From positions 1 through 40,394 of the forward strand of contig CAYIUC010000004.1 in assembly GCA_964366535.1 (NCBI GenBank): a stretch of DNA of 40,394 nt, in the 5' to 3' direction. A model generated the notes under the pieces. That model did no database searches. It was not told the origin of the DNA and saw nothing but the letters and a program-made list of their open reading frames with translations. This document shows, piece after piece, positions 977 to 39,561 of this stretch (within the stretch, counting starts at the first letter, position 1; each line of letters begins with the position of its first letter). The position numbers and the translations under genes were made by a program. This DNA comes from an uncultured Candidatus Saccharibacteria bacterium. GTDB taxonomy: Bacteria > Patescibacteriota > Minisyncoccia > Phycocordibacterales > UBA10002.

Positions 977-1903
977 TTATGCGCCGACTGGTTTACGCAC
1001 AATGAGTGCGCGAAGCGCATTCCATGCCACGCTGTCCATAAGCACAAGTGCTACGAGATATAGCGCGAAACCAATGAAATGATTCGCTTGAATCGATTCT
1101 CCGAACAGGAGTACACCAAGCGCAACTGTCATCGTCAGATAACTTCCGTTCATCACCAATTTCTTGAGTGATATGAACGCTCCCTCTTTGTACGCAAAAA
1201 GCGAGAACGACCACATAAAAAAAGTGGCGATGCCGACAATAACAGACGCCCCTACATATATGGACAGCGATGGCACTGCAATGTTCCACGCGCCGCCACC
1301 GAGTATGCCGACAAGCAACGCAGCGATTGCCAGCGTGCCGCCCCCCCACATATTTTGCGCGTATGGGTGAATGCGTTTCGTGGTCTGCACGATAAACTGA
1401 TTAAATGCAAGCCCAATGGTGTTGCCAAATGCAAACCATACCCATACCGGTAGCCGAAGTGCCTCCGCAAGTGAAGGAAATCCCAGTATTGCGTGTCCTC
1501 CGAGAATGCCGATTGTTAGACCGAGCCATTCGCGTATTCCAAGCGCATGTTTAAACCAAAACCGATCTAGCAGTGCGCCCGGAACAATAGAAAGCGTACT
1601 GATGAAAGTAACGACAATCACCGAACCGCCGTACTGAAACGCCGCCAATGCGGAAATATTGCATACAAGAGCGCCACATCCGAAGGCGACGGCTCCCCAT
1701 TTGCTTCCAGCGTCGCTTTTAATCTTCTCCGAAAGCCATGCGCGAGCGAGCGCGCCCAGACCCCACTGCATAGCGCCACCAATCGCAGCAATCCCCGTAA
1801 TCGCTGGAAGGTTTTGGGTTGCACTACCGAGTATTTTCTGCAAGACGCGTACAACCGTCTTCATTGTCGCCTCCAACACCGTCCACCGCATCCATTTTTG
1901 CAT
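977..1903 (-). CDS. DMT/EamA-superfamily membrane transporter
   Basis: 308 aa with many hydrophobic helices and two EamA-like repeats ending 'LLDRFWFKHALGIREWLG' and 'LGVLLFGESIQANHFIG'. AAAGGA SD before the ATG. Confidence 0.75.
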   Translation of the reverse strand: MQKWMRWTVLEATMKTVVRVLQKILGSATQNLPAITGIAAIGGAMQWGLGALARAWLSEKIKSDAGSKWGAVAFGCGALVCNISALAAFQYGGSVIVVTFISTLSIVPGALLDRFWFKHALGIREWLGLTIGILGGHAILGFPSLAEALRLPVWVWFAFGNTIGLAFNQFIVQTTKRIHPYAQNMWGGGTLAIAALLVGILGGGAWNIAVPSLSIYVGASVIVGIATFFMWSFSLFAYKEGAFISLKKLVMNGSYLTMTVALGVLLFGESIQANHFIGFALYLVALVLMDSVAWNALRALIVRKPVGA

Positions 1904-1944
1904 GCGATATCCTTTCTTTTTTGTTGTTCAAGAACTCTAAAAAC

Positions 1945-1973
1945 ACACTAACATACAAGAAGGAAAGACGCAA
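1945..1973 (-). promoter_or_regulatory. Sigma70-type promoter for the DMT gene
   Basis: Minus strand TTGCGT (1968-1973), 17 nt spacer, TAGTGT (1945-1950), with TG extension. Confidence 0.55.
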
Positions 1974-1979
1974 GCCCTA

Positions 1980-3044
1980 TTACTTTATCGGCACTAGGTT
2001 CTTGTTGTTATTTTTCCACGCCGTTTGGAGAACGGACATAACCGAGAGAGCGCTTTCAAACGCAAGCGGGGATTCAGAAGCGCGCACTTTGCCCGAAAAG
2101 ATGTCTGCGAGATGCAGCGTTTCTTGGTAGAAGTCATCTGGGCGTTTCTTCGGAAACACTTCTTCTTTTACTTGCCCATCTACGCCAGCATATCGCACAA
2201 GGTCGCCGCCGCCAGCGGCGCCACCGCAATGCCATTCAATAAATCCGTCTACACCTTGCACGCGTGCCCACTTACGCGTCGGTTTGGTAACCACATCCTG
2301 AATCACGCGGCCGATTTTCTTTTTGTCGGTCTCAAACGCAAACGCGGCAAGTGAATCATATTCCACTTGTTTATTTTTAGTTACATTTAGCGCCGCCGAG
2401 ACCTTTTTCCAATTCCCAAGACCCGCGATGCGAGCAAGATACTGCCACAAATGCAAAGCGTGCGAATTTTCTCCCGACGCTCCTCCGCCCTTTTTCCAAA
2501 ATCCCAAGTAAGTGTCCTGCGGGCCTTTTAGCCACGGGTGCGCCTTGAATATTCCCTCCCAATGTTCGCGGAACTCCACATCAAGCGTTACAACTTCTCC
2601 CGCTACGCCTTCTTTTATAAGCGCGGCGACGCGGTTGGTGGACTTAGCAACTGCGTGATCGTACCCTACAATTACTTTCGTGTCTTTTTGCTTTTTGTAT
2701 GCCACAACAAATTTCTTCAAATCAGGGTCAAACGGCGCACAGAGCGGTTTTTCCAACTGGAGTATGCGCGGCTTTTCTTTGAGCATTTCAAGCGCAACCT
2801 TCATACGCACATTGGGCGGCGTGCCAACCATAATAATGTCAAACCCGCCAGTAGGCGCGGTGTCGGGCGTATATTGTTTAATGCTTACATCCCACGCGCC
2901 GTAGCGCGTTGGGTAAATGCTTGTTTTCATCCGTTCCAACGCTTTCGGGTCGGCATCTACAACGCACACTTCCCAACCCATGCGCCGACACGCTTGCGCC
3001 AAATGGTTGCCTATAGATCCCGCGCCGATGATTTTTACTTTCAT
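1980..3044 (-). CDS. Gfo/Idh/MocA-family NAD(P)-dependent oxidoreductase
   Basis: IIGAGSIG Rossmann motif, 'VGTPP', EKP motif, 'GGGASGENSHALH' catalytic-region motif. Confidence 0.85.
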   Translation of the reverse strand: MKVKIIGAGSIGNHLAQACRRMGWEVCVVDADPKALERMKTSIYPTRYGAWDVSIKQYTPDTAPTGGFDIIMVGTPPNVRMKVALEMLKEKPRILQLEKPLCAPFDPDLKKFVVAYKKQKDTKVIVGYDHAVAKSTNRVAALIKEGVAGEVVTLDVEFREHWEGIFKAHPWLKGPQDTYLGFWKKGGGASGENSHALHLWQYLARIAGLGNWKKVSAALNVTKNKQVEYDSLAAFAFETDKKKIGRVIQDVVTKPTRKWARVQGVDGFIEWHCGGAAGGGDLVRYAGVDGQVKEEVFPKKRPDDFYQETLHLADIFSGKVRASESPLAFESALSVMSVLQTAWKNNNKNLVPIK

Positions 3045-3060
3045 ATGTGGTTATACTATT

Positions 3061-3783
3061 TTATAAAAACTTTTCTTGGTGCTTCTTCATAAGTTCTTCG
3101 GCAATCATAAAGTCAATTATATTATCTATATTCACCGACTCCCACTCATCCATCACATACCCCGCAATTTTCTCGCCCGTCATTGATTTCTTCTCCAAAA
3201 CCGTCTCTGGCCAAAAGGCGTTCATCGAGCCATTGTTTTGATATACGGGCGGGAGGAGCTGGCGCGCTGCGTTGTACGGCTCTTTCATACCCGTATGCTC
3301 TTCGGAAAGAAATGGCAGAATGTGCTCGCCAGTTATGCGCCACATTTTAAAAGGATGCTTGTCTGCCTTTGCAACAGCGCGCACCGAGTCCGCACCCGAT
3401 CGCCCAATCTTTTTTAGAAGCGCGATTCCTTCCGCAATGCGCGACGCGCGCCGAAGCGGCGCGGTCGCACGCAAATCCACCACCATATCGGGCAACTCGC
3501 CCGCGTCAGCGAGCGCGCGCAAGTGGTGCTCAAATACCGGTAAGTCAAGCGTAAGGTCCTGCGCCAATTCTTTTGGCCGTTCAAACACTTCCGCGCCGTG
3601 CGCTCGCGCCACCGCCGCAATCTCGGCATCGTCTGTGTTTACAATCACGCGCGTAATTTCCGGCACTTTCCGCGCCGCCTCAATAGTCCACGCAATAAGC
3701 GGCTTGCCGCACAAATCCTTTACATTTTTGCCCGGCACCCCTTTGCTACCACCGCGAGCGGGGATGATTGCATAAATCTTCAT
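3061..3783 (-). CDS. neuA: Acylneuraminate (CMP-ulosonic acid) cytidylyltransferase, NeuA family
   Basis: AIIPARGGSKGVPGKN motif, GKPLIAWTI, 'VNTDD', 'ERPKELAQD', 'SVNIDNIIDF'. Start moved to ATG 3783 (MKIYAII). Confidence 0.9.
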   Translation of the reverse strand: MKIYAIIPARGGSKGVPGKNVKDLCGKPLIAWTIEAARKVPEITRVIVNTDDAEIAAVARAHGAEVFERPKELAQDLTLDLPVFEHHLRALADAGELPDMVVDLRATAPLRRASRIAEGIALLKKIGRSGADSVRAVAKADKHPFKMWRITGEHILPFLSEEHTGMKEPYNAARQLLPPVYQNNGSMNAFWPETVLEKKSMTGEKIAGYVMDEWESVNIDNIIDFMIAEELMKKHQEKFL

Positions 3784-3810
3784 ATACGATATATAACTAC
3801 AAAAACAGAC

Positions 3811-3841
3811 AAAAAGAAACACCCGAACAAGTCGAGTGTTT
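3811..3841 (-). terminator. Intrinsic terminator downstream of the HAD gene
   Basis: Minus-strand stem AAACACUCGA/UCGGGUGUUU (one G-U pair) followed by CUUUUU. Confidence 0.6.
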
Positions 3842-3842
3842 T

Positions 3843-3960
3843 AGAGCGCGAAACAAAACACATTTTCAAAATGTCTGGAAGCGAGACGCGAGCCGACTGC
3901 TTGCAGTACGGCGAGCGCGAGTGGCCCGAGGACTTTTGAAAATGTCGTTTTGTGAAGCGG
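3843..3960. repeat. ~120-bp palindromic MITE/REP-like element
   Basis: Imperfect ~23-bp inverted repeats (3853-3875 ACAAAACACATTTTCAAAATGTC; 3931-3953 GACTTTTGAAAATGTCGTTTTGT) enclosing an inner stem GCCG-ACTG(CTTG)CAGT-A-CGGC. Non-coding; abuts the HAD stop codon. Confidence 0.6.
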
Positions 3961-4623
3961 TTACGCCAACAGCGCCGGCAACTCGGCGACTGACTTGATA
4001 AGCGGAAATTTGACAGTGTCCGCTGTCCATTTGTTCCACTCGTTGGCGACTCCGATGAAGTCACACTGAAACTCCCGTGCGGCTTTCCAGTCACCTTCGC
4101 TGTCGCCGACAAAGAGCATGGCTCCATGGTCCACACGCGCAATGTGTTGCGCGCGGGCGAGATTTTGCTCTTTGGTCAGTGGCTGACCAAAAATCCCGCA
4201 AAAGTGATGCGCGATGTCAAACTTCTTCACCGACTCTTGCACTGCAACTTCCGGTGTCGCAGAGTTTACAAATAACTCGCGACTTTGTGTGCGCAGTGTT
4301 ACGAGCGCGGCTTCCGTCCCCTCCGGCATTCCGGATTGCTCCAAGAGTTTATTAACGATGGTGTTGTAGCCGTCGGCGTAGGCGGCCGCAATCAGTTCAT
4401 ACTTCGCGCATGACATCAAGCGGAATGACTCGCGTAAGATGTCGTACCGAGACCCTTTTCCGCCGCTGTACTTTTCCCTTTGCCCCTGGAATATCTGCTT
4501 GTGAGCCAAACCCCATGGGCGTACGAGCATGTCCCACGCCTCCTGCTTCAACCCCTCGCCTCCCACTGTGAGCACTCCGTCAAAATCAAAGATCACTACC
4601 GACTTTCTCTTCATTTTTTTCAT
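3961..4623 (-). CDS. HAD-superfamily phosphatase (phosphoglycolate-phosphatase-like, capped)
   Basis: Motif I FDFDGVL, motif II VNSAT, motif III K, motif IV FVGDSEGD. Confidence 0.85.
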   Translation of the reverse strand: MKKMKRKSVVIFDFDGVLTVGGEGLKQEAWDMLVRPWGLAHKQIFQGQREKYSGGKGSRYDILRESFRLMSCAKYELIAAAYADGYNTIVNKLLEQSGMPEGTEAALVTLRTQSRELFVNSATPEVAVQESVKKFDIAHHFCGIFGQPLTKEQNLARAQHIARVDHGAMLFVGDSEGDWKAAREFQCDFIGVANEWNKWTADTVKFPLIKSVAELPALLA

Positions 4624-4656
4624 AACTTTTTTTCGTTTTTTCCATCTACCATATTA

Positions 4657-6213
4657 TCACCCCTTCTCTACTTCGTCAAATTGGTGGCGACCCCAGTTTA
4701 GGAGCTTTGTCTTGCGCTCCGGTCGCGGCATTGCAGATATTGTTTTATCTATATAATACGAATCGCCTTGCGTTTCTAAAGATGTAGTAGAGATTTCCTC
4801 AAAAATCACTCCGGTGTCGGTGCGGAAGCCGTGCCACACGCCGCGCGGCATCCACAAAGTGTCGCCAGGGTAGAGCATTTTCTTCTTTCCCTCCACATCC
4901 ATTTCCACCGTGCCCGCAAGCACATGGAAGCTTTCGTCCTTCACCTTGTGGTAATGCACCGGGTGGTACTGGCCGTGGAATTGCACGATAAGTTTGCGCG
5001 CGTACTCACGATTTATGCAATCCAAAATAATGCACCCGACTTCCTTAAACTTTTGTAGTCCGTAGTGGTGCGATACCTCTACCGTAAAGTCGTGCGAGAG
5101 CGGAATCTTAGCAGTATTTAGCATCGCCTTCGCCTCGCGCACCGCTTCGTAAATAGCATCGCGCTTGGAAAACCCGCGCACCGCGAGCGCCCCTGCAAGT
5201 GCTTCGCCCTCTGCATAGTCGCGGTCGGCAATAGCCCCAGCACGAAACTCGCCGCTAGTTAGGTGTTCTGGCGATACCAAAGGCATTGCGAAGAATACTT
5301 GCTCGCGCGAAATTTTCTCGCCCTTGCGAATCGGCACTTTCGCAAACACGCACCGCTTCAATGATTGCAAGTCGGCGCGCTCGGCGTCCGTTACTGGCCT
5401 GCCCGAGCCGCCGCAGGCGGCGACTGCGTTTTTGTACGCCGCTAGCCAAAGGCGCAATTCTTGCGGATTTGCGGAGTATGCGTTCAGCGTAATCTTTTCT
5501 GTCGGAACTCCGATGTGTTTCTCAAATATGCGCGCGCCTTTAGCATACGCCATACCTACCGCCCCAGTGTCGTTCGGCGCTTCGTGCGTAGAAAATCCGA
5601 TGGTGAGGTGCGGGTAACGATTGCGAAGCGTTTCAATGAAATCAAGCGAGAATTTGTCGGAGGGCGTAGGATATATCGCAACGCAGTGCATCAAAGCGAA
5701 GTGTACCCCGCGATGTTCAAAAAACGACACTACTTTATCTACTTCCTTTATTGAAAGTCCGCCGACTGAAACAATCACCGGCTTCCCTACTCCAGCAATC
5801 TTTTCCAAAAGCGGCCAATCGGTAGCGCTGCAACTCGCCACCTTCACAATCTCCACGCCGAGCGAATTCAGAAAATCCACCGACGGCTCATCAAATGGAG
5901 TCGCCATTGTGTATAGCCCCGCGCGGCGCGTTTCCTCCACCAATTCCCGAAATTCATCGCGAGAGAGGCGTGTAGATAGAAAGCGCGGGATGTGCTTCAC
6001 CTCCTTGCGCTCGCGAAATGCGGGGTGAATAAACGAGTCCAAGTCGCGCAATTGGAGCTTCACCGCCGCGCGCACGCCGTGCTCCTTCACTGCCGCCGCC
6101 GCCTCGCGGATAATGCGCTTGCCGTGCTCCAAAGACCCTTGATGGTTGTTCGCCATCTCCAGAGTAAACAGCCCGTCAAAAGAAAATTTGGGTGTGCCAA
6201 ATGAAGGCATCAT
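4657..6213 (-). CDS. neuB: NeuB-family PEP-dependent ulosonate synthase fused to a SAF domain and a C-terminal cupin (D-lyxose/mannose isomerase-like)
   Basis: LEMANNHQG, TPFDE, KVAS, MHCVAIYPT, GFSTHE, IFEKH motifs; SAF-like 'RCVFAKVPIRKGEKI'; cupin 'HPVHYHKVKDESF...PRGVWHGF'. Confidence 0.88.
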   Translation of the reverse strand: MMPSFGTPKFSFDGLFTLEMANNHQGSLEHGKRIIREAAAAVKEHGVRAAVKLQLRDLDSFIHPAFRERKEVKHIPRFLSTRLSRDEFRELVEETRRAGLYTMATPFDEPSVDFLNSLGVEIVKVASCSATDWPLLEKIAGVGKPVIVSVGGLSIKEVDKVVSFFEHRGVHFALMHCVAIYPTPSDKFSLDFIETLRNRYPHLTIGFSTHEAPNDTGAVGMAYAKGARIFEKHIGVPTEKITLNAYSANPQELRLWLAAYKNAVAACGGSGRPVTDAERADLQSLKRCVFAKVPIRKGEKISREQVFFAMPLVSPEHLTSGEFRAGAIADRDYAEGEALAGALAVRGFSKRDAIYEAVREAKAMLNTAKIPLSHDFTVEVSHHYGLQKFKEVGCIILDCINREYARKLIVQFHGQYHPVHYHKVKDESFHVLAGTVEMDVEGKKKMLYPGDTLWMPRGVWHGFRTDTGVIFEEISTTSLETQGDSYYIDKTISAMPRPERKTKLLNWGRHQFDEVEKG

Positions 6214-6254
6214 AGGGAGTTATGTGTACTGCAACTCCGCCAGAAAGTCAAATG

Positions 6255-7655
6255 TTACCGCGGCAGTACGGCAAGTATTTCGCTAGCAAGCCGGCGATCC
6301 GAATTGCCGTCAAGCCGGTAGCACTGCTCGCTTGTAAGCCGTTCGCGCGAGGCGCGGTCGCGCTCGGGGTTTGTAATGTATTCGCCAAGCGCCGTTCGGA
6401 GCTTAGCAAGTGATCCTACTAGACGGATACCGCCAGTCGCCGCCGCTTTCTGATAATGTGTGGATTGGTAGTACGGGTGCATACGCGATATTTCTTTTCC
6501 GTCTTTGATATCAAAGTTTATATTAATCACAGGCACACCGGCAACGGCGGCGTCAATGCTCAAACTTGTGTAGTAACACACAACCGCGCTCGCATAATGC
6601 AAGCTGTTGCGCAAACGCGCGAGGTCTGATTCTGTCATATCCCAATTTTGACCGCGCGTGCGCGCGAAGCGAGCGTCTGGAAGCGCTTCGCGAAACTTGA
6701 CTCCGGGTATGTCGTATACAATGCGTGGATGTTTCGGCCATTCCTCAAGATGCACTGGGTCATTCGGATGAAAACGCACGAGAAGGTACAGATTGCGTTC
6801 GTTGAAAGCTCCTGACTCAAACCATTCGGCAAGAATAGACACGAGCGCGCGGTCTAGCTCCGGACGAGTCGTATCAAAGTGCGCGCCGAGCGGCGCATAA
6901 AGAACAAACCGCGCATCTTGCGGCAACCCAAGCGAAGAAAGAAACTCGCCGCGTTTCGCAAACGGACCGCGCACGAGGTGATCATGCTGTACGGTGCCGC
7001 AGACGCGTACGCGCTCTACGGGCATATCTGCATACTCGGCGAGCTCGGCGCGCACAATTTCATTAAACGCAATGAATCGGTCGGGCAAATGGCGTAGCAT
7101 CCAGCGAGTTGTAACGCGATCCCAAGTATTCACAAGCCCCACAGAGAGTACTCCTCGGCGTTTCGCTTCGCCTAGAAGCGCCGCTTCTTGGTCGTCAAAC
7201 AAATCTGCAAGAAATATTAGGTCGGGTCGGTATTCTTCAAACACTGTCGCGTACTCTTTGTGCATTACAAGATGCTTGTCTGCAAAACGCGCGATGCGGC
7301 GGAACCACGACCGTGCGAATGCGCGGTTGAAAAGTAAGCTAAACGCAAAACGAGCGGCGCTACCGTTCTCCTCGTAGTGTACGCGGCGGCGCAAATCCAC
7401 GGTCTTAGTGCGCAATAGATACATCTTTAGGCGCGAGAAGAAACGCTCCGCGCGCGTGCGCACAAACGGCGGCAGTACAACGATGGTCGTTTCGGGATTA
7501 GCGCACATCGCGCGGTACACATCGGCAAGCTGTGCGTTGCGAAAGAGTAGTACTATTCGCACTCCATGCTCTTCGCGCAGTAGATCGTACACGCCGGTGC
7601 GTATTATATTTTTCGCCTCTACGCCCGAAAAGAGCGGGATAAAAATGGTCTTCAT
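6255..7655 (-). CDS. GT-B fold transferase, TagF/CDP-glycerol-phosphotransferase-like ('WD-motif' paralogue 1); candidate ulosonic-acid transferase
   Basis: 'NTWDRVTT', 'VRFHP', 'TSLSIDAA', C-terminal 'YRLDGNSDRR'; directly upstream of neuB. Start at ATG 7655 (MKTIFIP). Confidence 0.7.
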   Translation of the reverse strand: MKTIFIPLFSGVEAKNIIRTGVYDLLREEHGVRIVLLFRNAQLADVYRAMCANPETTIVVLPPFVRTRAERFFSRLKMYLLRTKTVDLRRRVHYEENGSAARFAFSLLFNRAFARSWFRRIARFADKHLVMHKEYATVFEEYRPDLIFLADLFDDQEAALLGEAKRRGVLSVGLVNTWDRVTTRWMLRHLPDRFIAFNEIVRAELAEYADMPVERVRVCGTVQHDHLVRGPFAKRGEFLSSLGLPQDARFVLYAPLGAHFDTTRPELDRALVSILAEWFESGAFNERNLYLLVRFHPNDPVHLEEWPKHPRIVYDIPGVKFREALPDARFARTRGQNWDMTESDLARLRNSLHYASAVVCYYTSLSIDAAVAGVPVININFDIKDGKEISRMHPYYQSTHYQKAAATGGIRLVGSLAKLRTALGEYITNPERDRASRERLTSEQCYRLDGNSDRRLASEILAVLPR

Positions 7656-13391: not shown

Positions 13392-14720
13392 CTACTTCAT
13401 TAATGCTTCGAGTATAACACGGAGCAAGCGTTCGCTTGATTTTTGGTCCAAGCGGTATGCTTGCTGTTCGGCAACGGCATTGCGCGTTGCGCGGTCGGAA
13501 TCCGGCTGTGCCAGATATTTCCCCAATGTTCGGCGAAGACCTTCCTCACTGTGCGCCACGGGTATTCCACCGACAATTAGCGGTTGCATATGATCGAGTT
13601 CGTGCAGCCGTGCAACGCTTTCCCAATAGGGCTTCTCGGTCGGGTCAAACCCGATAAGTATAACTGGCTTTTGGAGTACGAGCGCATCAACTGCAATGCT
13701 TGAGAATACTGTGAGTACCACATCGCTCGCGCAGATTGTTTCAACCAGATGTCGATCGTCATTTGCAGACAATTCCGCAGTTTTAAGCGCCGCCACGGAA
13801 GTACCAAGCGCTGTACCTGGCCGTTCCACAATCACATTTGCTGGAAGCGTGCCAAGCGACACCGTGTCTGTGGGCGGCAAACGCACCAAGATGATATGAG
13901 TGTCGGGAATATTCTGAGCCAATAGGCGAATCATCGCATCATCAAATCCTTTGCCGAGTTCGCCTTCTCCAACTTTTATAATTCTATCGCCGAGCGGCGC
14001 ATAGAGAACGCAGCGCTTTCCGCGTGAATTTAACTCCTTTTGCACGCTGTTTCTCAATTTGCATATATAGCGATCATAGTGCGGGACACCTACGACACGA
14101 ATGATTTGTTCTGGAATTCGATGAATCAAAACCGCCTCTTTTTTTATAACTTCGTTATTCACGACAAGTATATCGGGCACAACGCGAAATCCGCCCTTTG
14201 TCGTAAGGTTGTCCCACGAACGCACCATACCGATTGTGCGCACGCCGCGGCATTTCGCCTCATGCGCGATGCGGCAATCTGCAGAGCCAAAGATATCTGC
14301 AGTAAAAACAAGCGACGGATGATAGGTCTTAAATATATCTGCGTACGCATGCCTCGGCATAAGTAGCCAGTATACGAACGGAATAAAAGGACGCGCTGCG
14401 CGCGCAAAAGGCGACAGTATGCGGATAATCCATTCGCGCTCAAAACCAAGACGCATTTTGCGCATAATGTAGAGTGAACGAGTACGCACCGCCGAAATTG
14501 CGATGTCTTTAAAAAGAGCGTCTAACCGGCGAATTCGCCCTGGCACACCAACAATGACTACATTTGCCGCGCCATATTCTCTTTGCAAAAAATCTCTCTT
14601 TTTTTCTGGACACACAATTACTATGCGTAAACCAGATCGTTCTTTCAGTTCATTAAAAAACGGCGCGGCAAAAAGATTGCGCGAGACGAAAGGGTGGAAA
14701 CAAGTAATCATGACGGTCAT
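13392..14720 (-). CDS. GT-B fold transferase, TagF-like ('WD-motif' paralogue 2)
   Basis: 'RSWDNLTTKG', 'VVGVPHYD', 'VRLPP', 'SSIAVDA', 'YRLDQKSSER'. Start at ATG 14720, ATGA-coupled to the upstream gene. Confidence 0.7.
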   Translation of the reverse strand: MTVMITCFHPFVSRNLFAAPFFNELKERSGLRIVIVCPEKKRDFLQREYGAANVVIVGVPGRIRRLDALFKDIAISAVRTRSLYIMRKMRLGFEREWIIRILSPFARAARPFIPFVYWLLMPRHAYADIFKTYHPSLVFTADIFGSADCRIAHEAKCRGVRTIGMVRSWDNLTTKGGFRVVPDILVVNNEVIKKEAVLIHRIPEQIIRVVGVPHYDRYICKLRNSVQKELNSRGKRCVLYAPLGDRIIKVGEGELGKGFDDAMIRLLAQNIPDTHIILVRLPPTDTVSLGTLPANVIVERPGTALGTSVAALKTAELSANDDRHLVETICASDVVLTVFSSIAVDALVLQKPVILIGFDPTEKPYWESVARLHELDHMQPLIVGGIPVAHSEEGLRRTLGKYLAQPDSDRATRNAVAEQQAYRLDQKSSERLLRVILEALMK

Positions 14721-15376
14721 AGTGGTTTTGGTTTCTGAAATATAAAATATGCTGTCTGTCCGAATAATTTCGAATGTTTTAGAAAACGCTTTGTAAACGG
14801 TATTCTGAAATGTTTTGAACGAAACGGAAACTCGTACCCCCAAAAACCGCTTGCGACTGGCGTAAAAGATGTAAAAATCTTTTGCAAGGTCGTGTGTGTA
14901 AAAGGAGTGAGGTGTGAGTTGTTATGATGATACCGCGGCATTTCTCCTGAAAATAAGAACTGCAACCGGCTCCTTAGGTTAAAGACATTTGGTATGGACA
15001 CAAAAAGGATCCCCCCATCTTTCAAAACGCGCGCGGCTTCGCGTGCAAAATGGAATGGATTTTCCAAATGCTCCAATACATTCCACAAAGTTACCGCATC
15101 ATATACGCGGTCTTGAAAAAGCCATGCAGAATTTAGATCTTGCGCGACAAAAGATCCGACGCGTGTGCGTGCTTGCTCCGACAAAAAATTCTTTCCGTCG
15201 ACAGCATCCACCGCAAAACGCAGTGGCAGTGTGTCAATAAAGAAACCATTGCCGCTACCAACATCAAGTAGATGCGGCGTAGTAATGCTTGACGGGGTAA
15301 ATCGCTCCACGAGTCGTGACGCCTTTCCTCGATGCGTTATGGTACTACCCTCTTTTATACTCCAATCTTCTTTCAT
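14717..15376 (-). CDS. Class I SAM-dependent methyltransferase
   Basis: LLDVGSGNG, 'YDAVTLWNVLEHL', 'RVLKDGG', 'SIPN'. Confidence 0.85.
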   Translation of the reverse strand: MKEDWSIKEGSTITHRGKASRLVERFTPSSITTPHLLDVGSGNGFFIDTLPLRFAVDAVDGKNFLSEQARTRVGSFVAQDLNSAWLFQDRVYDAVTLWNVLEHLENPFHFAREAARVLKDGGILFVSIPNVFNLRSRLQFLFSGEMPRYHHNNSHLTPFTHTTLQKIFTSFTPVASGFWGYEFPFRSKHFRIPFTKRFLKHSKLFGQTAYFIFQKPKPL

Positions 15377-16515
15377 GATTTTTTTATTGCATGTCTGTAT
15401 AAAGCAAGCATTGCGTCAGTATATTTCTCCCATGAAATCTCACGCTCCACAAATGCACGCCCATCATTCGACAGGCGCGCGTAAAGCGCCCTGTCTCGTA
15501 AGAGCGCAGCTAGACAATTGGCGATACTTTCAGCAGAACACGGATGTGAAAGCAATGCGTTTGACTTGTCAGTAAGCACTTCTGAGGCGCCGGCGCTCTG
15601 CGACACTACGACAGGCAGTCCGCTCGCCATTGCTTCAAACACCGCAAGCCCCCAAGTTTGTAAGTGACTCGGAAACAAGAAAATATCTGCATTTCTGTAT
15701 CGCTCCACCAGTCCGGCCTCGTTTGCTGCACCAACAAAAACCACACGATCAGAAATCTCAAGCTCTGTGGCTTTATGTTGTAGTTCTTGATAATAAATGC
15801 GTGCATCTTTTTTATGTGTGTAAGAACCACTGATGGTCAGATCAACATCAAAGCCATCTCTTATGAGCCGCGCCAAAGCTTCAATCGCATCCTCAAATCG
15901 GCGATGTCTATAAAAAAGCGCGTGACAGAGTATGTGCACTATTCTTCCTTGCGGCAATGTACGAGCGTAAAAAGGAAATCTGCTTACATCCAAACCGCTA
16001 CGCACCACCGTGCTTTCTAAACCGAGATAATGTGCAATCTTCTCTTGCGTCCCGCGATTGAGTACGGCAACCGCATCGGCACCACCTACGAAGAATCGCT
16101 TCTTTGCATATTGATCCTTACACCACTGCACCGCGCGTCGCATAGGAGAAAAATGCTTACCGCTGTACTCGCGCATGAGCGACCATTGTGCAATATATAA
16201 ATCATTTATCATAAGTACAGAGGGAATGCGCCGAATATTTCTGCGGAAGTACGCGGCGACCTTGAGCGGCGCTTGTTCGTGCGGATTGAGCAGGTCTGTA
16301 TCTGGCGCAATTGCTCGCGCAAGTAAGTGTACTTTCGGCGCTGTAACGACGGCCATACCACGCAAAAGTTCTGGGTAACAGGTAGACGCGTTATAAGAAA
16401 AAGTGTATAGAGTCGCTTGATGTCCGCGCAATATTAGTTCGCGTGCAAGCATTATCGCTTGTCGCTCTGTGCCTCCAGACACTACCAATTGATGCACTAT
16501 GATTGCTATTTTCAT
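15373..16515 (-). CDS. Glycosyltransferase family 4
   Basis: 'GGTERQ', 'DIFLFPS..QTWGLAVFEAMASGLPVV', 'SWEKY'. Confidence 0.9.
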   Translation of the reverse strand: MKIAIIVHQLVVSGGTERQAIMLARELILRGHQATLYTFSYNASTCYPELLRGMAVVTAPKVHLLARAIAPDTDLLNPHEQAPLKVAAYFRRNIRRIPSVLMINDLYIAQWSLMREYSGKHFSPMRRAVQWCKDQYAKKRFFVGGADAVAVLNRGTQEKIAHYLGLESTVVRSGLDVSRFPFYARTLPQGRIVHILCHALFYRHRRFEDAIEALARLIRDGFDVDLTISGSYTHKKDARIYYQELQHKATELEISDRVVFVGAANEAGLVERYRNADIFLFPSHLQTWGLAVFEAMASGLPVVVSQSAGASEVLTDKSNALLSHPCSAESIANCLAALLRDRALYARLSNDGRAFVEREISWEKYTDAMLALYRHAIKKS

Positions 16516-17921
16516 ACAGATGGCAAATGCGCGTATGCGAGCAAGACATCGGCGACACGCGCGCTCGCTTGCCCATCTAATTTATAACAGAGTTCAGCAC
16601 ACATCTTCTCTCGCGCCGCCGCATCGCGCGACGGATCTTCCAGATATTCGCCCAAAATGAGTTTGAGTCTCGGAAAATCAAAAGCTTCTTTTAGCGCGCC
16701 GAAACGAATCACATCTTGAAAGTGCTCAAACCCGCGGAATCGACGTATAGAGCGGTGGAATGGGCGCACCTCATTCCCATCAAACGGAGCCGCTACAATG
16801 GGTCGCCCGAGAATTGCCGTTTCCAATAGCGCGGTTGAGTACACTGCCATTACGGCGTGCGCATGCCGCAAGATATTTACGAATCGTTTTAATTCTCCAA
16901 GATAGTTGGGAAGTTTTGTGTCGTAGAAAAACACTCGCGGGTGTTCCTTAAAGCGCAGGAATTTTTCTTCATCAAACTCTTTGTCTTTGCCGCGAGAACC
17001 AATGTATGGACGCACGACGAGGTATGTATCGTCGCCATACACCCCCGCATCAATCCATTTCAAAATCTCTGCAATAATGTCCGGCTCGTCAGGACAATAT
17101 GCGCTTCCAGATACATACACAATGTAACGCGCCTGCGCGGGGAAACCCATGTGTATCAACATTTCTTTACGCGGAATCACATACCTTTCATTCACCAAAA
17201 AGTCGTATTGCGGATACCCAACGATAGAAACTTCATTTGGATAGTACCCCTGAAACGCAATCGCGGCATGCCGCATCTGTTCGCTCGCCGCGAGGAAATG
17301 AGTCGCGCGGAACGGAAGATAATATTTATCAATATGGTCCCACCCCGCCGATATTCCTAGCGTATGCACTCCTTGACGCCGCGCTTCAGGCAGTACATGG
17401 CGGTCAAAACGATTGTATACACTGGATACGAGCACTACAGAAGGACAGTAGCGCTCAAAAAGAGCCTGGAACGGACGCGTGCGATATGCCACAAAATAGA
17501 ACTTCGTCGCTAGGCGCTCGCGAACGAAACGGCTCCTACCAAAAGTTGCGGCAATAAGCCGCTTAATGGGGTTCAACCACCTCTTGCCTCCAGCTGGCGG
17601 CTCACCAGGGCGCATACCCATAGTCGCTAGAATTTCCGTCGTCTTCGTATATAGAAGATACGAAGAGAAAAAGAGGTAAAGTCGCTGGAGCAGTGTGCGT
17701 CTGTAGTTCAAAAGCACCGGCTCCATAATAATTCGCTCGTTCCACACATCCCCCAACTCCGCGCGATAACGCTCGTAATCCTTTGTATTAACCAATACGA
17801 CAACTCGCAGGCGCGAAGAATCTTCTACCGCTCTTTTAAGAATATCAAACACACATCCAGGAAAACCGAAAAGATTCCGAAATTCCAGAGGAGACGGAAG
17901 TGTGATAAAAAGCGTGCGCAT
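16512..17921 (-). CDS. GT-B fold transferase, TagF-like ('WD-motif' paralogue 3)
   Basis: 'AGWDHIDK', 'IVGYPQYD', 'VRPY', 'STALLETA', 'YKLDGQASAR'. Confidence 0.7.
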   Translation of the reverse strand: MRTLFITLPSPLEFRNLFGFPGCVFDILKRAVEDSSRLRVVVLVNTKDYERYRAELGDVWNERIIMEPVLLNYRRTLLQRLYLFFSSYLLYTKTTEILATMGMRPGEPPAGGKRWLNPIKRLIAATFGRSRFVRERLATKFYFVAYRTRPFQALFERYCPSVVLVSSVYNRFDRHVLPEARRQGVHTLGISAGWDHIDKYYLPFRATHFLAASEQMRHAAIAFQGYYPNEVSIVGYPQYDFLVNERYVIPRKEMLIHMGFPAQARYIVYVSGSAYCPDEPDIIAEILKWIDAGVYGDDTYLVVRPYIGSRGKDKEFDEEKFLRFKEHPRVFFYDTKLPNYLGELKRFVNILRHAHAVMAVYSTALLETAILGRPIVAAPFDGNEVRPFHRSIRRFRGFEHFQDVIRFGALKEAFDFPRLKLILGEYLEDPSRDAAAREKMCAELCYKLDGQASARVADVLLAYAHLPSV

Positions 17922-22993: not shown

Positions 22994-23054
22994 ATCTGTG
23001 TTATGCTATTTCTGGAAACAGAACATTTAATCTGAAAAAGAGAAAGGATTGCGT

Positions 23055-24005
23055 ATGCAACCTGAAATCGCAGTTGGAAAACAAGAACCTTGGAAACATA
23101 AGGGCGTGCAAACCGTGGGTGGACTCATCATCCCGCGGCGCGTGGCGATTGAGACAATATTCGGATGCAACCTCTCGTGCGTTATGTGCCCAATAGACAT
23201 GCCGGCTGGGCGCAAAAAAGGCATTATGGCGTGGGACCTGTTCGCAAAAATTATAAGCGATCTTTTCCCATACCGAAAAAACATCGAGCTCTTGGATTAT
23301 TTTTGTCTCGGCGAGCCGCTGATGGACAAGATGATTTTTGAGCGTATCAAGTACGCCAAAGCGCGTGGATTCCAAAACTTAAGCATCTCTACTAACGCGA
23401 TGCTTCTGACACCAGAAAAGCAAGACGCACTTCTGGAAAGTGGAGTTGATACAGTTATCTTCTCCATAGACGGCGCGAAAGCGGAAACGCATGAAGCAAT
23501 TCGCGTACGCGCAAAGTTTGACACAGTAGTCAAGAATTGCGTGGAGATGATTGAGCGACGAAATGCCGGAAACTATCCGACCCGTTTTCTCGTCCGCTTC
23601 GTTCGACAAGACGCGAACCGCGGCGAATGGGAAGTGTTCAAGGCATTCTGGGAAGAAAAAATCAATCGCGAGCGGCGCGACTTTATCGGATGTTTAGACG
23701 CCAGGTCGTGGGGAAGCGTGCATTTTCCAGTGACCCGAACGGAAGTCATTGAGAAAATGGCTTGTCCGCAGATATCAGAGATTCTGTACATTCTTTGCGA
23801 CGGAACGGTACCGCTATGCTGCAACGATTGGAACAAGCCAGAGTACAACTTCGGCAATGCAGGGGAGCAATCTCCCATTGAAATATACAATTCGACGCAG
23901 CTTGCGGCGATTCGCAGAATCCACGAAGACGGGCGCAAATGCGCCATGGAAATCTGCAAAGATTGTACGGTGCTTTATGCGCTGGGTCAGCGGGAATTCG
24001 CATAG
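23055..24005 (+). CDS. Radical SAM protein with SPASM/twitch domain
   Basis: CxxxCxxC (CNLSCVMC), GEP, STNA, FSIDG; C-terminal C..DG.V.LCC.D...C..C. AAAGGA SD before ATG 23055. Confidence 0.9.
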   Translation: MQPEIAVGKQEPWKHKGVQTVGGLIIPRRVAIETIFGCNLSCVMCPIDMPAGRKKGIMAWDLFAKIISDLFPYRKNIELLDYFCLGEPLMDKMIFERIKYAKARGFQNLSISTNAMLLTPEKQDALLESGVDTVIFSIDGAKAETHEAIRVRAKFDTVVKNCVEMIERRNAGNYPTRFLVRFVRQDANRGEWEVFKAFWEEKINRERRDFIGCLDARSWGSVHFPVTRTEVIEKMACPQISEILYILCDGTVPLCCNDWNKPEYNFGNAGEQSPIEIYNSTQLAAIRRIHEDGRKCAMEICKDCTVLYALGQREFA

Positions 24006-24023
24006 CTCTCGCTTCCACTCACC

Positions 24024-24057
24024 CTCCCCAGACCCTTACCGGTTTGGGGAGTTTTTT
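24024..24057 (+). terminator. Intrinsic terminator after the radical SAM gene, overlapping the 3' end of the convergent aminotransferase
   Basis: Stem CTCCCCAGACC/GGTTTGGGGAG (one G-U pair), 6-nt loop, then TTTTTT. Confidence 0.65.
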
Positions 24058-25208
24058 AACACTGCAATCATCTGCGCGATTGCTTTTTTAATCATTGGCA
24101 CCGTGGCTGACGCGAAGCTCATACGCACAAACCCGTCGCCTTGCGCGCCAAACGCCGTGCCGTCTAGTAGCGACACTCCCGCTTTTTCAAGCATCAAATC
24201 GCGGAAGGCGACGCTTGAAAGTCCGGTACCGCTAATGTTTGCAAACGCATAAAATGCTCCGCCAGGCGAGACACAGGAAACGCCTGGAATAGTATTCAAC
24301 CCTTGTATAAGAGCGGAGCGGCGCTTCTGGAGCTCCCGCCACCGCATAGCAACTCCTTTCTCGCCAGAACTGAGCGCCGCAATTCCGCCGCGCTGTATAA
24401 AAACAGGAAGGCACGAAAGAATTGTTTCCGCCATAAGTCCTATCTTTTGTGCAACTATTGGTGGCGCAACTACAAAACCGAGCCGCCATCCTGACATCGC
24501 ATACGCTTTGGAAAAACTATACAAAAGAATGACGCGCTCACTGCATCTGTCAAAAGACGACGCGGATGCTATTTGCGCGTCCGAGAGTTTTCTATACACT
24601 TCGTCGCTCAAGATACAGCAGTCATTCTCTTCAGCAAGACGATAAAACGCTTCCACATCATCTTTTGTTAGCACTGATCCCGTAGGATTCTGCGGCGAGT
24701 TTAGGATAATTAAGCGCGTGCGCGGCGTGATACGCTTTCTAGTTTCTTCTGGTGACATTCGGAAACTGTCTTTCTCACGAAGCGGCACAGGAACGCCGCG
24801 AACTCCTGCATACGCGCATACTGCGGCATAGGTTGGAAATCCTGGGTCTGGATAGAGCACTTCGTCTCCAGGGTTCGCAATCGTACGAATTACAAAATCA
24901 ATGAGCGCGTTTGCTGGAGACACAACGACTTGCGAGATATCAGGCAAAAAGCCCCACTCATCTTTTGCGTATCGCGCAATTTCCTCACGCAATTCCCACA
25001 AACCAGAAGAAGAGGTGTAGTGCGTCTCGCCCGCGTCAAGAGATTTTTTTGCAGCCGCGACTACCGCAGGTGGCGTATCAAAATGCGGATCGCCTATTTC
25101 AAAATGAATCACTTTCTTGCCGGCGCGCTCGCGCTCCTTCACTACAGAAAGAAAGCCGAACATCGGCTGTCCTATAAGCCGCTTTGCCGATTCTGAAAGA
25201 GATCGCAT
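24036..25208 (-). CDS. PLP-dependent aminotransferase, class I/II
   Basis: IGDPHFDTP, YTSSSG, NSPQNPTG, SDEVY, SFSKAYAMSGWRLG, RMSFA. Confidence 0.92.
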   Translation of the reverse strand: MRSLSESAKRLIGQPMFGFLSVVKERERAGKKVIHFEIGDPHFDTPPAVVAAAKKSLDAGETHYTSSSGLWELREEIARYAKDEWGFLPDISQVVVSPANALIDFVIRTIANPGDEVLYPDPGFPTYAAVCAYAGVRGVPVPLREKDSFRMSPEETRKRITPRTRLIILNSPQNPTGSVLTKDDVEAFYRLAEENDCCILSDEVYRKLSDAQIASASSFDRCSERVILLYSFSKAYAMSGWRLGFVVAPPIVAQKIGLMAETILSCLPVFIQRGGIAALSSGEKGVAMRWRELQKRRSALIQGLNTIPGVSCVSPGGAFYAFANISGTGLSSVAFRDLMLEKAGVSLLDGTAFGAQGDGFVRMSFASATVPMIKKAIAQMIAVLKNSPNR

Positions 25209-25213
25209 AAAAA

Positions 25214-26932
25214 CTAAATAATAACCTTGGGAGGAGTTACGACTACATCCAATACAGTTTGGTCTGGATGTAAATTTACATTAATCAATGCCGGACCTTT
25301 TATGGAAAGAATCTTTCGTAAATTTGCTCTCACCTGCTTATCATCTTTCAAACTGAAAGATTTTATACCATATGCCTTTGCGATTTTTACAAAATCCGCC
25401 GCGGCATAGCCGGTTTTCGGCTCATTGCCGAATGTGCGACCCGCAAAGTCATTTTTGTTGAGCATCATCATGCCGTAGCAGTAATTATTGAGAACGAAAA
25501 TCTTTACCGGTACCTTGTACAGAAAAACCGTTTGCATTTCTTGTATGTTCATTTGCATACCGCCGTCTCCGATAAGGCACACTGTGCGCGATTTCGGGCG
25601 CGCGTAATGTGCTCCGACGGAGGCGGGAAATGAGTAGCCCATCGGAGAATTCCCCCATGCTGAAATGAAGCGCTGATTACCGCCTTTGCTTTGATACCCC
25701 TGCACCCCCCAAACCAAGTTTAAACCGCAATCGGACACCACAACATCTTCATCACCTATCAATTCCGAAAGCGCATTTACGAAAGAATGCGGATTCACCC
25801 GCGCGCCGCGCGATGTCGGCGGCGGCACATTGATTGCGTGGTACGAGCGCTTGAGAGAGCGGGCGAGCGAAAGCCACTCGGCTCTTCCATCGGCGGCTTT
25901 TCGCGCGCGCTTCGCGCGCGCGAGGAGTGCTGGTATAAAAACCGATAGGTCCGCTACGATGGTCTGCGCGTGTTTCAAAAGCCCGTCTTCCAATTCGCCT
26001 TGGTCTATATCTACCGCGATAACTCGCGTATCTTTCGCGAAGATTTTGTCGTTATAGACCATCTTTGTAGTAAAACGCGAGCCGAGCGCTAAGATGAGGT
26101 CGCTTCGTAGAGATATCTCATTCGCAGAAACATTGCCGTATCGTCCAGGACTTCCTAGGTAGAGCGGTTCACGGTGCGGCATCACATCCGCCGCACCCCA
26201 AGTAGCAACTACAGGAATTTGGAGTGCGCGCGCAAGCGCGCGCGCTGTTTCCGTTTGTCTAGAAAGACGCACTCCGCCACCAAGAAGAAGTATCGGGCGT
26301 TTCGCTTTAGTAAGTTCTGAAAAGATGCCTTCCACAGCATCAACTGGCGCGACAGAACGCTCTTGTTTCGGCGGAACAAAAGGCGAGAGCTCCGATGGCG
26401 ACACTAGCTCGCGTTGTACATTAAACGGAATATCAATTAGAACTGGGCCTGGACGGCCATCTTTCGCATGCCACACCGCTTCTTCAAAAACGCGTCGCGC
26501 ATCAGCGCCGCGCTCAAGCATAACCGCATATTTAGTGATGGGCTTCATTACAGACACCATGTCGGTCTCTTGGAAACCGCGCTGACGCACGCGGCGATCC
26601 CCCTTCACATGGAACATTCCCACTTGCCCCGTGATAAACAAACACGGTACCGAGTCGTAGTAAGCGCAAGCGATACCGGTCATCAAGTTTGTACCGCCAG
26701 GACCGGAGGTTGCAAGCCCGACCCCGAAACCCTTGATGCGAGCGTAGCCGTCTACAAACATCGCGACTGCTTGCTCGTGATTGCAAGCTACATATCGTAA
26801 TTTTGGATGCTGCCCTACCGCATCAATCACTTTCATAATCGCTCCTCCCTGTACAAACGGCACAGTGTCTACACCTAGCTTTGCGATACTATCGGCTATG
26901 TATTCGGCTACGCTTATCTTTTTGTCTTGCAT
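25214..26932 (-). CDS. Thiamine-diphosphate-dependent enzyme, acetolactate-synthase-like (YerE-type carboligase candidate)
   Basis: HEQA, TSGPGGTN, GFQE, GDGGMQMNIQE...NN ThDP motif; embedded in a sugar locus with no ilvH/ilvC neighbours. Confidence 0.85.
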   Translation of the reverse strand: MQDKKISVAEYIADSIAKLGVDTVPFVQGGAIMKVIDAVGQHPKLRYVACNHEQAVAMFVDGYARIKGFGVGLATSGPGGTNLMTGIACAYYDSVPCLFITGQVGMFHVKGDRRVRQRGFQETDMVSVMKPITKYAVMLERGADARRVFEEAVWHAKDGRPGPVLIDIPFNVQRELVSPSELSPFVPPKQERSVAPVDAVEGIFSELTKAKRPILLLGGGVRLSRQTETARALARALQIPVVATWGAADVMPHREPLYLGSPGRYGNVSANEISLRSDLILALGSRFTTKMVYNDKIFAKDTRVIAVDIDQGELEDGLLKHAQTIVADLSVFIPALLARAKRARKAADGRAEWLSLARSLKRSYHAINVPPPTSRGARVNPHSFVNALSELIGDEDVVVSDCGLNLVWGVQGYQSKGGNQRFISAWGNSPMGYSFPASVGAHYARPKSRTVCLIGDGGMQMNIQEMQTVFLYKVPVKIFVLNNYCYGMMMLNKNDFAGRTFGNEPKTGYAAADFVKIAKAYGIKSFSLKDDKQVRANLRKILSIKGPALINVNLHPDQTVLDVVVTPPKVII

Positions 26933-28621: not shown

Positions 28622-28636
28622 TAAGTTTGTGCTCGT

Positions 28637-39560: not shown

Positions 39561-39561
39561 A

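Follow-up and report, generated by a model that had tools for sequence, protein, structure and literature searches.

The window analysed here, the 40,394 nucleotides of contig CAYIUC010000004.1 from an uncultured Candidatus Saccharibacteria bacterium (assembly GCA_964366535.1), raises the question of which acidic sugar is made, and from which precursors, by a block of six genes that includes a sialic-acid-type synthase fused to a cupin domain. The six open reading frames (ORFs) lie one behind the other on the minus strand, separated by gaps of 16-138 bases, between positions 977 and 7676. They encode a TagF-like putative transferase of the GT-B type, the NeuB-SAF-cupin fusion, a haloacid dehalogenase (HAD)-type phosphatase, a NeuA-like cytidylyltransferase, a Gfo/Idh/MocA oxidoreductase and a membrane protein resembling EamA/DMT (drug/metabolite transporter) proteins (Table 1), which is the arrangement described in an earlier interpretation made from the letters alone (hereafter the sequence-only reading). 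We consider it rather likely that this block is a copy of a widespread cassette that makes a cytidine monophosphate (CMP)-activated, nitrogen-free 3-deoxy-2-ulosonic acid from central metabolites, much as the phosphate route to 2-keto-3-deoxynononic acid (Kdn) does; as in that route, synthase, phosphatase and cytidylyltransferase stand next to one another in the window and amino-sugar genes are absent. In this scheme, the cupin would convert a ketose phosphate to a manno-configured aldose phosphate, the likeliest pair being fructose-6-phosphate (F6P) and mannose-6-phosphate, and the fused NeuB-type domain would condense the aldose phosphate with phosphoenolpyruvate (PEP) to an ulosonate phosphate (Kdn-9-phosphate, if the sugar is a hexose). 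The HAD enzyme, encoded immediately downstream, would then remove the phosphate and the NeuA-like enzyme would form the CMP-sugar. The Gfo/Idh/MocA enzyme, found at about 60% of the loci, may act on one hydroxyl of the sugar, which it would oxidise or epimerise as a tailoring step, and the TagF-like transferase would finally place it on a surface glycan. The product would thus probably be Kdn or a Gfo-tailored isomer of it.

The association between the fusion and its neighbours is real and not a matter of chance, since it recurs in 113 fused loci. A scan with one genome per species returned 347 stretches that encode a relative of the fusion, and the best 80 of these resolved into 65 loci, 24 of them labelled as lying outside the candidate phyla radiation (CPR): Elusimicrobia, Fibrobacteria, Bacteroidetes/Runella, Bdellovibrionales, Deltaproteobacteria, Binatia, Gemmatimonadales, Gammaproteobacteria/Wenzhouxiangella, Treponemataceae and Anaerolineae. 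In a representative library, 314 clusters matched at E<=1e-30, and a metagenome scan added 80 more loci, 53 of them fused. Of the 113 fused loci from genomes and metagenomes, 55 are flanked by at least 4 kb on both sides, and it is in these that genes within five positions of the fusion were counted. A cytidylyltransferase is present in 41 of them, the Gfo enzyme in 33, a phosphatase of any form in 32 and a TagF- or Maf-type transferase in 22; the KpsC/S type is found in none of this subset. The sequence-only reading had listed a DMT gene among the contiguous genes as well; we dropped it as a core component, because an EamA/DMT gene is near the fusion in only two of the 55 loci and a homologue of the window's own copy in one of the 65 genome loci. 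Unfused relatives (27 loci so counted, some of them cut by contig ends) occur in a different context, with a thiamine pyrophosphate (TPP) enzyme of about 600 amino acids (aa) in 15 of the 27, with GT2, DegT and methyltransferase genes, and with no cytidylyltransferase, HAD or Gfo genes; they were not informative as a clue to what might stand in for the cupin. A phage search yielded three weak partial NeuB matches and no fusion. Named relatives place the genome among the Parcubacteria/Paceibacteria of groundwater. Ten DNA runs from three studies contain near-identical DNA, and six of the ten are labelled groundwater metagenomes; no RNA run was among the runs listed as carrying the locus.

Sequence comparison places the synthase in a distinct "EMANNH" subfamily of NeuB and not among canonical NeuB, PseI or LegI enzymes. 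The unusual EMANNHQG motif to which the sequence-only reading had drawn attention is indeed there, at residues 19-26. The fusion scores 151 bits on the NeuB equivalog TIGR03569 and 142 bits on the PseI equivalog TIGR03586, and so reaches neither cut-off (399.65 and 340.25 bits, respectively); on the former model, five EMANNH-type proteins, fused and unfused, scored 118-155 bits against 252-383 bits for 14 canonical paralogues from related loci. A phylogeny of the synthase had been suggested as a check, and in a FastTree analysis of 84 rows (14 canonical and 24 unfused sequences, and 46 fused ones that a 62% identity filter retained out of 108) a branch with 100% SH-like (Shimodaira-Hasegawa-like) support splits the 14 canonical NeuB proteins from the 70 EMANNH rows, and the window protein sits deep inside the fused group. 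The synthase thus falls outside the canonical clade, in a tree that holds no biochemically characterised enzyme. The solved structure that comes closest to the NeuB-SAF part is 3G8R, a structural-genomics entry for an uncharacterised "probable spore coat polysaccharide biosynthesis protein E" of Chromobacterium violaceum, which shares EMANNH and differs in being 350 aa long and in having no cupin. It scores 299 bits in a sequence search of the PDB, compared with 86 bits for Neisseria meningitidis NeuB, 70 for Campylobacter jejuni PseI and 99 for a Leptospira enzyme, and in the fold search it shows 44% identity (template-modelling (TM) score 0.90) versus 24-25% for structures of the NeuB/PseI type. 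The SAF part receives no Pfam call; the alignment to the NeuB equivalog extends over it, with residues 19-337 corresponding to model positions 6-327 of 329, and it also lies inside the 332-column structural match to 3G8R.

At the level of single residues, H210 and H233 of the fusion align with the two metal-ligand histidines of N. meningitidis NeuB (presumably H215 and H236) and are conserved in 35 fusions; the K52/Q54 positions are also conserved. A conserved basic insert after strand 2, specific to the subfamily, contributes R56, H63, H74 and R77, all invariant in the 35 fusions. The SAF arginine of the meningococcal enzyme, Arg314, which we take to reach the active site, aligns with Met310 of the fusion, and the subfamily has a deletion at the place where a canonical paralogue carries RRPG. 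Arg314 is the subject of mutant structures, according to the titles of PDB entries 4IPI and 4IPJ.

These observations bear on the possibility that the protein is after all an ordinary amino nonulosonate synthase, of the N-acetylneuraminic acid (Neu5Ac), legionaminic acid (Leg) or pseudaminic acid (Pse) type, which would work on imported or host-derived precursors and in which the cupin would be regulatory or vestigial. Retention of the metal-ligand histidines and of the K52/Q54 positions would agree with it, as would the dependence of CPR bacteria on their hosts for many metabolites and a genome in which known routes to PEP were not found. Equivalog scores below half of the cut-offs, a separate clade and the missing counterpart of Arg314 are difficult to reconcile with it, however, and some relatives keep a full canonical NeuB, NeuC and NeuA set in addition to, and beside, the cassette (a second, canonical NeuB lies near the fusion in eight and NeuC in four of the 55 well-flanked loci). 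Moreover, the precursor genes are missing. The sequence-only reading had found no NeuC, Pse or Leg precursor genes in the 40 kb, and this can now be extended to the whole genome, which is 99.91% complete (663,692 bp in 44 contigs, the window being contig 4). Profile searches whose positive controls were found in 7 to 14 of 14 named genomes detected no Epimerase_2 protein (NeuC/LegG type) anywhere in it, a single 24-bit DegT match, which fell on a class I/II aminotransferase of the window (Table 1), and no PseB-type dehydratase, the only Polysacc_synt_2 match in the genome being a 27-bit one at the N-terminus of a short-chain dehydrogenase/reductase (SDR). GlmS was not found either, and the genome has one NeuB gene. 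Together with the conservation of the cupin described below, this makes an amino nonulosonate synthase a very improbable explanation.

The structural model and the alignments alike identify the C-terminal part of the fusion as a complete domain of the D-lyxose/D-mannose-isomerase type, predicted to act as a metal-dependent aldose-ketose isomerase. In the AlphaFold2 (AF2) model of the fusion (predicted local distance difference test (pLDDT) 88), the best Foldseek matches beyond the NeuB part are D-lyxose isomerases, headed by Bacillus subtilis YdaE (2Y0O; TM 0.70, 25% identity over 166 columns) and followed by Thermofilum TsLI (7NZO-Q), Escherichia coli Z5688 (3MPB/3KMH) and an L-ribose isomerase. 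A profile built from 30 cupin domains matches 7NZO (2.4e-14) and 2Y0O (1e-13) over the whole domain. A dioxygenase role for the cupin was considered and dropped, because the quercetinase matches do not extend beyond the stretch with the metal motif, while the isomerases align over the entire domain. The PxHxHxxKxE motif proposed in the sequence-only reading is present as P418-V-H420-Y-H422-K-V-K425-D-E427. In TsLI, the sugar and Mn contacts are K62, H75, H77, K86, E88, H143, E156 and D163 (PMC8378251; this and the other papers are cited from parts of their text). Seven of these eight are kept in the fusion, as K407, H420, H422, K425, E427, H461 and E473, and all seven are invariant in 35 fusions with identities down to 56% and largely kept in a broader set of 30; the eighth, D163, aligns to a loop whose length varies, next to the invariant D484. 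Such invariance argues that the cupin is not vestigial. With characterised D-lyxose/D-mannose isomerases it thus shares a cupin fold with N-terminal helices, the Mn ligands (three His and one Glu) and the catalytic Lys and Glu; it differs from them in its low identity of about 25%, in its fusion to a synthase and in two additional elements, an invariant S381-H382-H383 motif and a C-terminal tail, R497..R500-K501-T502..N506-W507-G508. Its distance from the known family is also apparent from a score of 18.2 bits on the equivalog NF051472 (cut-off 350) and from a PF07385 match that is confined to residues 401-427.

Homology to D-lyxose isomerases suggests a different order of events, in which the HAD enzyme would first remove the phosphate from F6P or another ketose phosphate, the cupin would isomerise the free ketose (fructose to mannose) and NeuB would condense the free aldose with PEP. 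D-lyxose isomerases do use free lyxose or mannose (PMC8378251), the typical bacterial NeuB accepts a free sugar (PMC6200933), and the residues that contact the free sugar are conserved in the cupin; besides, 23 of the 55 loci have no phosphatase nearby, as expected if that enzyme were dispensable or generic. The way in which phosphatases are linked to the fusion, however, speaks for the phosphate route that we favour. The phosphatase step occurs with the fusion in three non-homologous forms. First, the HAD cluster comprises 31 loci, and in 28 of them a stand-alone HAD homologue follows the fusion immediately (+1). Second, three HAD-less loci (L019, L022 and L035) have a His_Phos_1 phosphatase paired with an APH-family kinase. 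Third, a compact, capless HAD domain forms the C-terminus of long cytidylyltransferases (329-365 aa) in all 12 examined, each with the motifs DIDGV and TARG, a conserved K and DD, although Pfam returned only sub-threshold HAD_PNKP matches for five of the ten tested. In our judgement, replacement of the phosphatase by non-homologous enzymes, together with its fusion to the activating enzyme, argues that dephosphorylation is a real step and takes place just before CMP activation. Fusion of the phosphatase domain to the cytidylyltransferase fits consecutive dephosphorylation and activation better than an initial dephosphorylation of the ketose, and the pairing of His_Phos_1 with a kinase would be pointless if a free sugar were the substrate; this pairing rather hints at a salvage variant in which a free sugar is phosphorylated. 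In the Kdo (3-deoxy-D-manno-octulosonic acid) and animal Neu5Ac routes, too, the phosphatase acts after the condensation with PEP. The same order is described for the Kdn route (PMC6200933), and the invariant SHH motif and RKT..NWG tail of the fusion family are absent from D-lyxose isomerases. Taking both sides together, we regard a route through free sugars as unlikely, although it deserves to be kept in mind. As regards the HAD enzyme itself, a search against the PDB returned two weak matches only. Separately, genes for APH-family or AAA_33 kinase-like proteins recur beside the cassette in L019, L022, L035, L026, L039, L047, L059 and L060.

If phosphorylated sugars are used, which ketose phosphate is available? 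Whole-genome searches found neither SIS nor SIS_2 proteins (and hence no GlmS, KdsD or GmhA), nor phosphoglucose isomerase (PGI), nor either type of phosphomannose isomerase (PMI), so that, apart from the cupin, these searches brought up no candidate that could make a manno-configured aldose phosphate; the lack of GmhA, noted in the sequence-only reading for the heptose genes of the window, thus holds for the genome as well. RpiB, ribulose-phosphate epimerase (RPE) and transketolase genes lie side by side on contig 28, and the genome also encodes a class II fructose-bisphosphate (FBP) aldolase and a MurA-type enzyme. F6P, xylulose-5-phosphate (Xu5P) and sedoheptulose-7-phosphate (S7P) are all conceivable as ketose substrates, and the product could conceivably have eight, nine or ten carbons. 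It is therefore necessary to consider a chain length other than that of Kdn, whereby Xu5P would be converted to lyxose-5-phosphate and on to an 8-carbon acid, or S7P to D-glycero-D-manno-heptose-7-phosphate and on to a 10-carbon acid. The preferred substrate pair of the isomerase family is a pentose pair (PMC8378251), Xu5P and S7P would be the most direct ketose phosphates in a genome that has the RpiB-RPE-transketolase cluster and in which PGI, transaldolase, PMI and GmhA were not found, and HddA/HddC-like genes are present in the window of a genome without GmhA. On the other side, the HddA and HddC matches are far under their cut-offs, and F6P could be supplied by the class II FBP aldolase. 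The cassette is shared by many phyla whose metabolism is complete, and the only bench parallel, in Serratia, makes Kdn (PMC9000132).

The cytidylyltransferase also bears on this point. It scores 68-107 bits with CMP-Neu5Ac synthetases and at most 35 bits with KdsB, and it reaches 128 bits on the PseF model (cut-off 206). By sequence it is thus nearer to the CMP-sialic acid synthetases than to KdsB, which leans towards a 9-carbon sugar. We therefore hold a product of eight or ten carbons to be improbable. Taken to its end, this reading would have the cupin descend from the free-sugar D-lyxose isomerases and form a novel class of isomerases for phosphorylated sugars, acting on Xu5P or S7P, and the cassette would be a source of as yet undescribed 8- or 10-carbon CMP-ulosonic acids, which again strikes us as a doubtful outcome. 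With S7P as substrate, the cupin could also supply heptose-7-phosphate to the GmhA-less HddA/HddC-like genes of the same cluster, a role that the sequence-only reading had raised more speculatively. The best NCBIfam models for this plus-strand group, which consists of genes for an SDR, a nucleotidyltransferase and a GHMP kinase (Table 1), are HddC and HddA; no GmhA (SIS_2) or other SIS protein from which a heptose phosphate could come is encoded in the genome.

Returning to the phosphate route to a Kdn-like acid, several points weigh against it and have to be set beside the evidence in its favour. Metabolically, PGI, transaldolase, enolase, pyruvate kinase and PEP synthase or pyruvate phosphate dikinase (PPDK) were not found in the whole genome, so that F6P can be supplied only indirectly and PEP has to be obtained by another route; access to Xu5P and S7P is at least as easy as to F6P, and metabolism therefore does not favour Kdn. 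All characterised D-lyxose isomerases use unphosphorylated sugars, as far as they are covered in the cited part of PMC8378251. Besides the loci without a nearby phosphatase, the range of five genes around the fusion holds no cytidylyltransferase in 14 of the 55 and no Gfo enzyme in 22, and neither the characterised Kdn-9-phosphate synthases nor the Serratia NeuB are among the rows of the tree. Finally, the fold ranking for the Gfo enzyme is flat, with E. coli YjhC on top, and its role rests on analogy. PEP would be needed in any case, since a MurA-type enzyme is present; both this enzyme and the NeuB-type synthase require PEP, yet no known route to it was found. We nevertheless see the proposal of the sequence-only reading (a non-amino, Kdn-like route with an aldose made in situ by the cupin and perhaps tailored by the oxidoreductase) as supported, at the level of sequence, predicted structure and gene context, by the cupin fold with its seven retained contacts, by the position of the synthase outside the canonical clade, by the genome-wide absence of precursor genes and by the three non-homologous forms in which the phosphatase is linked to the fusion. 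Neither of the two outcomes that the sequence-only reading had named as refuting it was observed.

The Gfo/Idh/MocA enzyme is probably a tailoring enzyme, by analogy with relatives that act on nonulosonates. The triad E98-K99-P100 is invariant in 34 homologues, and the AF2 model (pLDDT 96) superimposes on many members of the Gfo family with TM scores of 0.7-0.8 at 13-19% identity. A single-sequence search of the PDB gave no match and a profile search only distant ones (<=40 bits); an Atlas search returned generic Gfo clusters only. Among Gfo-type enzymes, YjhC/NanOx transiently oxidises C4 of sialic acid (PMC7535918), and ElaA, part of the CMP-Leg5,7Ac2 8-epimerase cassette ElaABC, has been proposed from structures and docking to oxidise C8 and is encoded beside a cytidylyltransferase (PMC13656337). 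The cassette resembles these systems in placing a Gfo/Idh/MocA enzyme in a nonulosonate setting and differs in having no partner SDR, and the similarity is at the level of the fold only.

The 473-aa protein that opens the block scores 15.6 bits on PF04464 Glyphos_transf (cut-off 22.1), has no Pfam match at E<=0.001 and gives a weak 24-bit match to NF046086; in the Atlas, by contrast, 28 of its 30 matches are PF04464 clusters (score 0.98), and its relatives at other loci reach 59 to 207 bits on that family. Transferases near the fusion at other loci are of the TagF, KpsC/S or Maf type, families that use CMP-linked donors. CDP-glycerol would be another possible donor for the TagF-like transferase, because a TagD-like enzyme is encoded in some fusion loci. 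The protein is one of five diverged TagF-like paralogues (23-30% identity, ~460-500 aa) in the 40-kb cluster, all on the minus strand. At three further loci (L078-L080, one of whose contigs is labelled a human gut metagenome assembly), a plus-strand gene at 3797-6127 just upstream of the NeuB-cupin fusion encodes a 776-aa protein in which a Maf/MptE-like putative glycosyltransferase is fused to CTP_transf_3.

How does the cassette relate to known systems? In the Kdo pathway, KdsD, KdsA, KdsC and KdsB isomerise a ketose phosphate, condense the product with PEP, remove the phosphate and activate the sugar with CMP, the same four chemical steps as proposed here, with an isomerase (SIS) and a synthase (of the 3-deoxy-D-arabino-heptulosonate-7-phosphate (DAHP) synthase family) that are not homologous to those of the cassette. 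The Kdn phosphate route, described for Bacteroides thetaiotaomicron (BT1714 synthase, BT1713 phosphatase and CMP-Kdn synthetase) and also for Prymnesium parvum, proceeds likewise from an aldose phosphate and PEP through an ulosonate phosphate and a phosphatase to CMP activation, with a NeuB-family synthase, a NeuA-like enzyme and no amino-sugar genes; routes from phosphorylated sugars, in these two organisms and in humans, need a phosphatase, whereas the usual bacterial NeuB route does not (PMC6200933). In that route, as presented in the part of the paper cited, mannose-6-phosphate comes from general metabolism and no isomerase is fused to the synthase, whereas the cassette has its fused cupin, an EMANNH synthase (in a tree that does not include BT1714), a HAD-IA or one of two other forms of phosphatase and, usually, a Gfo enzyme. 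The closest bench parallel is that of the Serratia marcescens capsule loci KL1/KL2, where NeuB is also fused to a sugar(-phosphate) isomerase/epimerase domain and NeuA also adjoins. The fused domain there belongs to COG1082, which we take to be a TIM-barrel family, rather than to the cupins. These loci contain only neuA and a 2,241-bp neuB, encoding ~746 aa with the extra COG1082 domain, and the strains make Neu5Ac in addition to KDN, sialic acid requiring neuB (PMC9000132). We found no description of a NeuB-cupin fusion in the literature searched (supplements not covered), and a term search of a large nonulosonate-synthase phylogeny, PMC8208679, returned none of the words "cupin", "fusion" or "fused". 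The cassette is thus a variant of the known logic of the Kdn route, and its new part is the isomerase-type cupin fused to the synthase.

The remainder of the window is one large glycan cluster, with glycosyltransferases of the GT2, GT4 and GT9 families, FkbM and other methyltransferases, a carbamoyltransferase, an ATP-binding cassette (ABC) exporter, SDRs, nucleotidyltransferases, a GHMP kinase, a TPP enzyme and a radical S-adenosylmethionine (SAM) protein. Close to the contig start, an ORF of 163 aa resembles the N-terminal Rossmann part of a GT-B-type protein; its homologues follow the Gfo gene in L004 and L011 and belong to a cluster of ~386 aa, and the window copy may be truncated, as the contig starts at base 1. 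Between the cassette and the ABC exporter lies a pair of genes with no homologue in the 65 related genome loci. Coordinates are collected in Table 1.

Table 1. Features of the window, with ORF domains named by Pfam and NCBIfam (bit scores separated by a slash are score and cut-off)
Feature	Coordinates	Strand	Remarks
TagF-like (GT-B) putative transferase, 473 aa	6255-7676	-	first gene of the block
NeuB-SAF-cupin fusion, 518 aa	4657-6213	-	PF03102 NeuB 154 bits (cut-off 22.1); PF07883 Cupin_2 44 bits; partial PF07385 Lyx_isomer match
Fusion, residues 1-343: NeuB TIM barrel and SAF-like part, EMANNH subfamily	5185-6213	-	
Fusion, residues 344-518: linker helix and D-lyxose/D-mannose-isomerase-type cupin (predicted)	4660-5184	-	
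HAD-IA phosphatase, 220 aa	3961-4623	-	HAD_2 41 bits; motifs FDFDGV, GDSEGD
NeuA-like cytidylyltransferase, 253 aa	3061-3822	-	CTP_transf_3 89 bits; IPARGGSKG loop; start probably Met14, coordinate 3783
Divergent Gfo/Idh/MocA oxidoreductase, 354 aa	1980-3044	-	PF01408 28.5 bits (cut-off 24); PF22725 27.8 bits
EamA/DMT-like membrane protein, 308 aa	977-1903	-	EamA 24.2 bits, under the 28.2 cut-off; five hydrophobic segments (crude scan)
TagF-like paralogue	13392-14843	-	the only one of the five to pass the PF04464 cut-off (40 bits)
TagF-like paralogue	16512-17921	-	
TagF-like paralogue	36796-38166	-	
TagF-like paralogue	38163-39674	-	
ORF resembling N-terminal Rossmann part of a GT-B-type protein, 163 aa	8-499	-	
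MarR/IclR-like winged-helix protein, 114 aa, and protein of no known family, 124 aa	7790-8518	-	
Radical SAM/SPASM protein, class I/II aminotransferase and TPP enzyme	23049-26932		aminotransferase: GntC-like best model, 292/415 bits; TPP enzyme: acetolactate-synthase-like, 358/538 bits
Class I/II aminotransferase with the DegT match	24036-25208		
SDR, nucleotidyltransferase and GHMP kinase	26980-29617	+	HddC 109/300 bits; HddA 141/600 bits

Fusions of this kind are spread over CPR bacteria and metagenome-assembled genomes (MAGs) labelled as about a dozen other lineages, and in the organism studied here the glycan cluster around the cassette takes up at least 40 kb of a 664-kb genome. If the proposed pathway is true, it would constitute a third, independently assembled route in which an isomerase, a synthase, a phosphatase and a cytidylyltransferase lead to an acidic surface sugar, beside the Kdo route and the Kdn/Neu5Ac phosphate routes, and the fusion would be a two-domain enzyme for the synthesis of Kdn-type sugars in which the substrate is possibly channelled from one domain to the other. 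Environmental surveys would furthermore gain a marker gene by which nitrogen-free nonulosonic acids could be traced, and bacteria with almost no sugar metabolism would be able to coat themselves with a sialic-acid-like sugar.

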